Of a DNA stretch of 8,854 bases, positions 1 to 207 are shown piece by piece. The notes under the pieces were generated by a model, which searched no databases, was not told the origin of the DNA, and saw only the letters and a program-made list of their open reading frames with translations. Both the position numbers and the translations under genes were made by a program. Each line of letters begins with the position of its first letter. Within the stretch, counting starts at the first letter, position 1. Source of the DNA: a virus (Duplodnaviria > Heunggongvirae > Uroviricota > Caudoviricetes); the IMG/VR virus record IMGVR_UViG_2778261069_000005, positions 1-8,854 of that record; one strand, given 5' to 3'.

Positions 1-127
1 GCTGGAAAGGCTGGGCCATACTCCTCCGGCAGAAGCAGAAAAAGCTTATTATGCTTCCATCGGAAACGATGATCTGGCAGCCTGAGTTCACAGATAAAAC
101 ACTCTCCAGGAAACCCGGGGCGGTTCA
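1..127 (+). mobile_element. Right end of an IS3-family insertion sequence (partial): transposase C-terminal codons 2-85, terminal repeat ending ...GGCGGTTCA at 127
   Basis: Frame from position 2 reads LERLGHTPPAEAEKAYYASIGNDDLAA then TGA at 83-85, which fits the C-terminal integrase-like motif of IS3-family OrfB transposases. The element ends in CA at 126-127 (the reverse complement begins TGAACCGCCCC), typical IS3-family termini. Positions 4-127 are an exact inverted repeat of 8731-8854. Confidence 0.75.
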
Positions 128-207
128 GTGGATTGATCCAGTAATTCCCTCAGAATTCCATCTGGATTTGTTCAGAACGCTCGGTCTTGCACACCGGGCG
201 TTTTTTA
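128..207 (+). ncRNA. oop: OOP-like antisense RNA, antisense to the 3-prime end of cII
   Basis: Sequence from 128 (GTGGATTGATCCAGTAAT...CCATCTGGATTTGTTCAGAACGCTCGG...) closely resembles the lambda OOP RNA as I recall it. It is about 78 nt, overlaps the cII 3-prime end on the opposite strand, and ends in a hairpin plus T-run. Confidence 0.55.

Follow-up and report, generated by a model that had tools for sequence, protein, structure and literature searches.

We analysed an 8,854-nt stretch of viral DNA (IMG/VR record IMGVR_UViG_2778261069_000005; hereafter the window), which opens inside the right end of an insertion sequence, IS629, and from position 128 rightwards carries a lambda-type early region in reverse orientation. 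Where the two meet lies an antisense RNA gene resembling oop of phage lambda. The features to which the analysis refers are as follows.

1-127, plus strand: IS629 right end (3′ part of orfB and the right inverted repeat, IRR), with the IRR tip ...GGGGCGGTTCA at 127; 100% identity to LC567828.1
124-143: remnant of a LexA-box-like 20-mer, which reads TCCTGTGGATTGATCCAGTA in an intact relative; the left half-site CTG is CAG here
128-130, plus strand: GTG, the probable right-hand copy of a 3-bp target-site duplication, equal to oop +1 to +3 (from the L018 junction, described below, and flank mapping)
128-207, plus strand: oop-like antisense RNA body, complete, 80 nt, without promoter (lambda alignment and two-hairpin fold)
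150-449, minus strand: cII, 99 aa, intact, convergent with oop (Pfam Phage_CII, E = 6e-35; identical to WP_000438538.1 of E. coli CAU16175)
174-207, plus strand: intrinsic terminator tO, a 12-bp stem (hairpin 174-204) and then a T-run (terminator scan and fold)
530-580, minus strand: nutR-like site upstream of cII, between cro and cII, with boxA CGCTCTTTG and, beyond it, a hairpin resembling boxB (TCGCTGAAAAGCGA; loop GAAAA)
588-821, minus strand: cro-like gene
935-1639, plus strand: CI-like S24 repressor, intact
2805-3149, plus strand: N antiterminator, intact (Pfam N_peptide, E = 2e-32), which bears on the passage of pR transcripts through IS629
4281-4339, plus strand: Rfam Lambda_thermo (cIII thermoregulator), a full-length match of 88.5 bits directly over the cIII start
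4294-4458: cIII, with gam, bet and exo after it
8731-8854, minus strand: second IS629 right end, inverted, forming an inverted repeat with 4-127 (100% complementary)

The element at 530-580, recognised by a pattern search and direct reading of the letters, is probably nutR by analogy with lambda.

The IS629 end

Window 1-127 matches, at 127/127 positions, the closing 127 bp of an 'IS3 family IS629' annotation that is 1310 bp long (LC567828.1) and ends on the base equivalent to window 127. The end has the further marks of an IS629 (IS3 family) terminus, finishing in ...CA and taking part in imperfect terminal inverted repeats, with the first 14 nt common to the left repeat (IRL) and IRR. The transposase genes read in the sense direction on the plus strand of the window: orfB stops with TGA at 83-85, the frame-2 translation ends ...GNDDLAA-stop, and only the last 27 codons of orfB fall within the window. 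Full IS629 copies in L014 and in relatives are annotated with the programmed -1 frameshift of orfA and orfB. Duplications of 3 bp, which are typical of IS629, read TAA in LC567828.1, CTA in Stx1a phages and TAA in E. coli MS 119-7.

An open reading frame of 70 aa (51-263, plus strand), which uses a frame other than that of orfB over the 3′ part of that gene, spans the boundary between IS and phage. We found no recorded gene with that product, and this frame is probably not a real gene.

A complete oop-like gene without its adjacent promoter

In a three-way alignment, homology to lambda and to the intact relative E. coli CAU16175 begins exactly at 128, while position 127 is a mismatch. CAU16175 is 100% identical to the window over 128-900, and reads ...GAAGTTGAGTATTTTTGCTGTATTTGTCATAATGACTCCT up to the site and GTGGATTGATCC... 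beyond it. Window 128 corresponds to lambda 38675 and window 128-207 to lambda 38675-38599; lambda base 38,675 has been published as encoding the 5′ terminus of OOP RNA, and the -10 element of the oop promoter, Po (pO), lies at 38683-88, that is, 8-13 nt further right (PMC5869508). The original prediction had placed the terminal CA of the IS at 126-127, with phage DNA from 128, and had set the start of the lambda-like sequence at the expected OOP start, about 22 nt past the cII stop codon; both placements hold to the base, and the alignment of 128-207 to lambda OOP that it had proposed as a check gives homology from exactly 128 onwards.

In a pairwise alignment of the 80-nt RNA gene with the 77-nt OOP of lambda, 71 positions are identical, and the gene folds into the same two hairpins as its lambda counterpart (dG -29.1 kcal/mol, z -4.4). 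In lambda, OOP arises as a primary transcript of about 77 nt and reduces cII expression via RNase III. As in lambda, the gene here starts 22 nt from the cII stop codon (150-152), runs convergently with cII, overlaps its 3′ end (by 58 nt, compared with 55 in lambda) and closes with a terminator. Unlike lambda oop, it has a terminator loop 3 nt longer, a broken LexA-like box across +1 and no adjacent Po: where intact relatives have the -10 CATAAT (at -13 to -8) and the -35 TTGAGT, the window has the IRR of IS629. The RNA gene is thus an oop homologue in every tested respect save its adjacent promoter (the sequence from the mapped 5′ end to tO, the overlap with the cII 3′ end, the terminator and the two-hairpin fold all agree), and the element next to it is a canonical IS629. 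An Rfam scan of the window gave no match to the oop family, the sole match being the cIII thermoregulator.

The insertion site also falls within a LexA-box-like motif, which the original prediction had not remarked. The palindrome CTG-N10-CAG spans oop -2 to +14 both in lambda (15/20 matches to the consensus) and in the intact relative (14/20; L001 2997-3016), and it is lost at both IS junctions. A LexA site in oop-pO has been mentioned (PMC5869508). With this putative operator across the start site split, Po is probably freed from LexA control.

No convincing promoter in the IS end

Whether the end of IS629 supplies a substitute for Po was examined with a sigma-70 position weight matrix (PWM), an approximate matrix of our own making. 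Comparison with intact relatives, which had been suggested as the way to define the original Po, gives a -35 TTGAGT, a 17-bp spacer and a -10 CATAAT upstream of oop. This native promoter, with a TG upstream, scores 10.8, and only four placements on both strands of the whole window reach 10 or more. The TTGAGT-17-CATAAT sequence itself is absent from the window. On the plus strand of window 1-200 the best candidate scores 5.4, and it lies at 133-161, inside oop, where it is present in intact relatives too. The bases at -13 to -8 relative to 128 are GC-rich (CCGGGG). A consensus promoter scan of window 1-1000 returned 0 sites, a negative that weighs little because the same scan also missed pR and pRM. 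The suspicion that the IS end holds no convincing -10 hexamer is therefore borne out by the matrix and, for what it is worth, by the scan.

An outward-directed or hybrid promoter at the right end of IS629, driving oop from near its normal start, would have a precedent in IS911, IS2 and other IS3-family members, which carry an outward -35 in IRR (PMC9330008). Such a promoter requires a -35 in the IS suitably spaced to a -10 in the flank, and no pair at this junction scores above 5.4; in addition, the junction of an IS629 circle (IRR-GTG-IRL) scores below 4 and yields no fusion promoter. We consider this explanation very improbable.

The reciprocal junction and the fate of Po

Simple insertion predicts a second junction, in which Po and GTG run into the left end of IS629. 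An IMG/VR contig with this pattern was found (L018; UViG_2778261069_000001). It reads ...GAAGTTGAGTATTTTTGCTGTATTTGTCATAATGACTCCTGTG up to the junction and TGAACCGCCCCGGGAATCCTGGAGAC...AGGATGACTAAAAATAC after it, that is, intact Po, GTG and then the left end of IS629 into orfA; at the junction itself, ...CATAATGACTCCTGTG is followed directly by TGAACCGCCCCGGG. Its orientation is as predicted, it breaks off exactly 127 nt inside IS629, and its O (299 aa, with Shine-Dalgarno sequence and ATG), P and ren genes are intact. Mapping of the flanks shows that the left flank, in L018, ends at oop +3 and the right flank, in the window, starts at oop +1, so that GTG is present on both sides. In the CATAAT hexamer, CAT is the O start codon read on the opposite strand; this agrees with a pO- mutation placed 2 bp away from the initial codon of O and with the overlap of the pO -10 with the O start region (PMC3985674).

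The two sides of the proposed insertion are held in separate records that overlap only in GTG, with the complete IS copy lying outside the window. Since use of the same GTG target in the same orientation twice is very unlikely, we infer that the window and L018 record one event. The exact right-hand junction (127/128) had no match in complete E. coli genomes, phages, GTDB genomes, IMG/VR or metagenomes, and IS629 at oop +1 to +3 was not found in 5,426 complete E. coli genomes or in the phage collection; the closest relatives have contiguous cII-O-P-ren. The reciprocal Po-GTG-IRL junction argues for a simple insertion with GTG duplication, by which Po was most likely displaced by 1,313 bp rather than destroyed, and by which it most likely points into the transposase genes of IS629 in the sense direction. 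The original prediction had Po replaced by the IS end; it is correct that Po no longer adjoins oop, but the promoter appears to have been moved, and it is intact in L018.

Two other origins of the junction have to be weighed. The window stops inside the IS, the left flank of its own copy lies out of view, and the linkage to L018 depends on position, orientation and duplication, so the simple insertion remains a probable rather than a certain reading. The junction could instead be the endpoint of an adjacent deletion or inversion mediated by IS629, with Po and O-P gone or elsewhere and oop silent. Adjacent deletions dependent on IEE, the IS-excision enhancer protein, are documented for IS629 (PMC9330008), and relatives show comparable events in the same region, with an IS-linked rearrangement at +74 in L002 and an 80-bp loss in L031. 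The 8.6-kb phage segment moreover abuts IRR at both ends, as the product of an inversion would; however, this geometry alone is weak evidence, because two independent insertions give inward-facing IRR ends one time in four. Against a deletion or inversion stand the perfect reciprocal junction in L018, its 3-bp GTG duplication and its intact O-P-ren, and we regard such an origin as unlikely. An assembly artefact, namely a chimeric join at a repeat, might be suspected on the ground that the window resembles a whole short-read contig whose two ends lie 127 and 124 nt deep in a multicopy IS. The lengths of the IS stubs, together with the 127 nt in L018, do suggest a whole contig broken at a multicopy repeat, as by a k = 127-type assembly. 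A real junction nevertheless normally takes just this read-supported form, a contig that leaves unique DNA and enters a repeat for its first 127 nt, and the reciprocal junction, with a duplication that matches, occurs in an independent record, which leaves an artefact barely credible. We conclude that a simple IS629 insertion splitting Po from oop is the best explanation as a whole, with a probability of about 75%.

The right-hand end of the window

The phage segment (128-8730; 8,603 bp) is bracketed by two inward-facing IRR ends, of which the second, inverted one had gone unremarked in the original prediction. We considered whether the segment is a composite transposon (IS629, 8.6 kb, IS629). 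The left reciprocal junction continues into O-P, just as intact prophages do, and in the gene order of the closest relative, E. coli Z1323CEC0009 (L017; 99.6% identity), the right breakpoint falls between the DUF4222 gene and the gene upstream of xis/int. As both breakpoints lie in native gene order, a composite transposon is not indicated. The right-hand IS629 junction (8730/8731) was not found in the relatives examined. In a related prophage (L022, around 10770; CP117628.1) an insertion lies 9 bp from the right-hand IS629 site, but the element is IS2 and the event a different one; this prophage has a further IS between P and cII.

IS629 insertions elsewhere around oop

Differences in the copy number and position of IS629 are described as the chief cause of diversity among Stx phages (PMC4587872), and they can alter prophage induction (PMC10810198); prophage decay driven by IS629 is likewise recognised as the main origin of variation among EHEC prophages. 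The insertion described here is likewise an ordinary IS629 insertion polymorphism, a known kind of event and not a new system. It shares its end, its probable 3-bp duplication and its location in the early region with the IS629 (IS1203v) polymorphisms known from lambdoid and Stx prophages of E. coli, EHEC included, whereas its site at oop +1 to +3 had no counterpart in the complete E. coli genomes and phages searched. The literature yielded no report of an IS associated with oop, nor anything on the classical lambda mutants of the r32/IS2 type.

Other IS629-type insertions near the site, placed relative to oop +1, are the following.

-236, in O: Stx1a phages; duplication CTA
about -76: O157 strain 7784
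-11 to -9: E. coli MS 119-7 (L016, L019; NZ_CP146653); opposite orientation, duplication TAA
about +59, in the tO loop: strain 90-3040; duplication GTG
+74: HCP4S3_I4; with rearrangement
+119 to +121: SJ7
about +156: CEA106S; with an 80-bp loss

For the insertions other than that in MS 119-7, the coordinates in their records, not given in the order above, are 1990/3299 (L032), 2049/3358 (L033), 2084/3393 (L031), 3127 (L002), 1922 (L030) and 1318/2627 (L015).

A close parallel is that in MS 119-7, an independent simple insertion of the same element which lies 11 bp away, within the -10 hexamer of Po, and has duplicated 3 bp (TAA). It differs in its opposite orientation, in the loss of the -35 and in an oop variant of the Stx1a-phage type. 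At that junction (L016 4430-4472, L019 13333-13358) the ...TTCA of the IS tip and the adjoining TAATGAC together restore CATAAT, with a PWM score of 6.4 compared with 10.8 for native Po.

Counting the insertion at +1, at least eight distinct IS629/IS1203-type events fall within about 400 bp (-236 to +156), two of them using a GTG target and two accompanied by a deletion or rearrangement. Such clustering raises the question of whether IS629 targets the site, or whether insertions here are selected as disabling prophage replication or induction. Among complete genomes, an IS629-type end near Po/O was found in 14 (IRL within about 630 bp), compared with 8 and 0 for controls in which the same IS end was joined to bet or gam phage segments, all of these counts being inflated by clonal O157 genomes. 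The excess of 14 over 8 and 0 is not convincing as a hot spot: the bet control is itself well populated, the positions are scattered over several sites, and the searches were aimed at this region, which introduces ascertainment bias. Because of the clonal genomes and the region-directed searching, a hot spot is not established. Targeting or selection is accordingly a doubtful explanation, and the hit on exactly +1 is best treated as coincidence.

Predicted consequences for transcription

In the arrangement that simple insertion implies, the 1310-bp IS629 would have landed in the 32 bp between cII and O of a lambda-type prophage, and the GTG with which oop begins would have been duplicated. The order would be O (minus strand), Po (-35 TTGAGT, -10 CATAAT), GTG, IS629 (IRL, orfA, orfB, IRR), GTG-oop body-tO and cII (minus strand). 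The oop body, tO and cII are intact, and Po is absent from the window. The 77-80-nt OOP RNA would no longer be made as a primary transcript. Po would still fire, having kept its -35, its -10, the upstream O-side DNA and the native +1 to +3, and it would transcribe the transposase genes in the sense direction. In lysogens Po is reported to have low activity, with a rise of about 40-fold after induction.

Some transcripts initiated at Po or within the IS would be expected to continue to tO, those from Po over 3 + 1310 + 80 = 1,393 nt, and to end in the antisense sequence of oop. No strong sense-strand terminator was found in IS629, in which there is one weak 6-bp stem in orfB, and an IS-derived 5′ extension leaves the oop hairpins undisturbed in the predicted fold; transcripts from Po or an IS promoter can therefore, in principle, end at tO with the antisense sequence attached. 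Rho-dependent termination in a poorly translated orfB could halt read-through before oop. In the leader of the Po-initiated transcript, we looked for a fold-back hiding the orfA ribosome site and obtained no signal (z = +0.6). The original prediction held that OOP may be silent or made by read-through from the transposase gene only. Read-through is indeed the only plausible source of RNA containing oop, as predicted from the arrangement, but Po itself may contribute to it besides the weak transposase promoter.

The situation resembles the read-in and fusion transcription known for insertion sequences, in which a host or phage promoter comes to lie just ahead of an IS end, and a gene just behind one. 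It differs from fusion transcription in having no hybrid promoter, and the influence would run from the phage promoter to the transposase: Po may feed the transposase gene and give rise to a transposase mRNA with an oop tail.

On the other strand, pR transcripts leaving cII would cross IS629 in the antisense direction before reaching O-P, which the insertion would now separate from pR. The IRR hairpin was considered as a terminator of these incoming transcripts and is weak (dG -9.7, z -1.2). N antitermination suppresses the polarity of insertion sequences. With N and the nutR-like site intact, antitermination may let pR transcripts reach O-P on induction. A moderate promoter-like pair, TTGACG-17-GAGTAT (PWM 7.1), lies antisense within IS629, some 60-90 nt in from the tip of IRL (on the L014/L018 side, outside the window), and points outward to O; such scores occur about three times per kb, and the pair is only a lead for O-P transcription.

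The net outcome would be an altered, and probably weakened, module for replication and the lysis-lysogeny decision. It had been suggested that lysogeny control could change through OOP and cII. Published data on pO/oop mutants point to a minor role, if any, after SOS induction and to little effect on CII (PMC2327240), and any such change is probably small. A defective pO, by contrast, lowers lambda replication, and pO and pR interact at ori-lambda (PMC3985674). Taken together, these reports make it likely that the effects on replication are the larger, with O-P cut off from pR and the pO/pR interplay at ori-lambda disturbed.

Significance

A further reading goes beyond simple insertion. Po, without its LexA-like operator, would drive the transposase from an mRNA ending in oop and tO, so that transposase production is tied to the state of the prophage and the cII mRNA and the chimeric transposase-oop RNA target each other; the recurrent hits around Po would then reflect selection for this arrangement or for taming of the prophage. 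We offer this as a speculation with the odds well against it.

Returning to the simple insertion of IS629, its significance is to show, at single-base resolution, how an ordinary hop of the element can split the classic pO-oop unit, damaging neither half, while severing the replication genes from pR. Provided that the source strain is available, the result would be a natural allele that combines a promoter-less oop with a pO-driven transposase. Such an allele could be used to test how much OOP and pO weigh in lysogeny, and in the replication and induction of wild lambdoid prophages, as well as whether a phage promoter raises IS629 activity. Otherwise, the insertion would stand as one further case of prophage decay driven by IS629.
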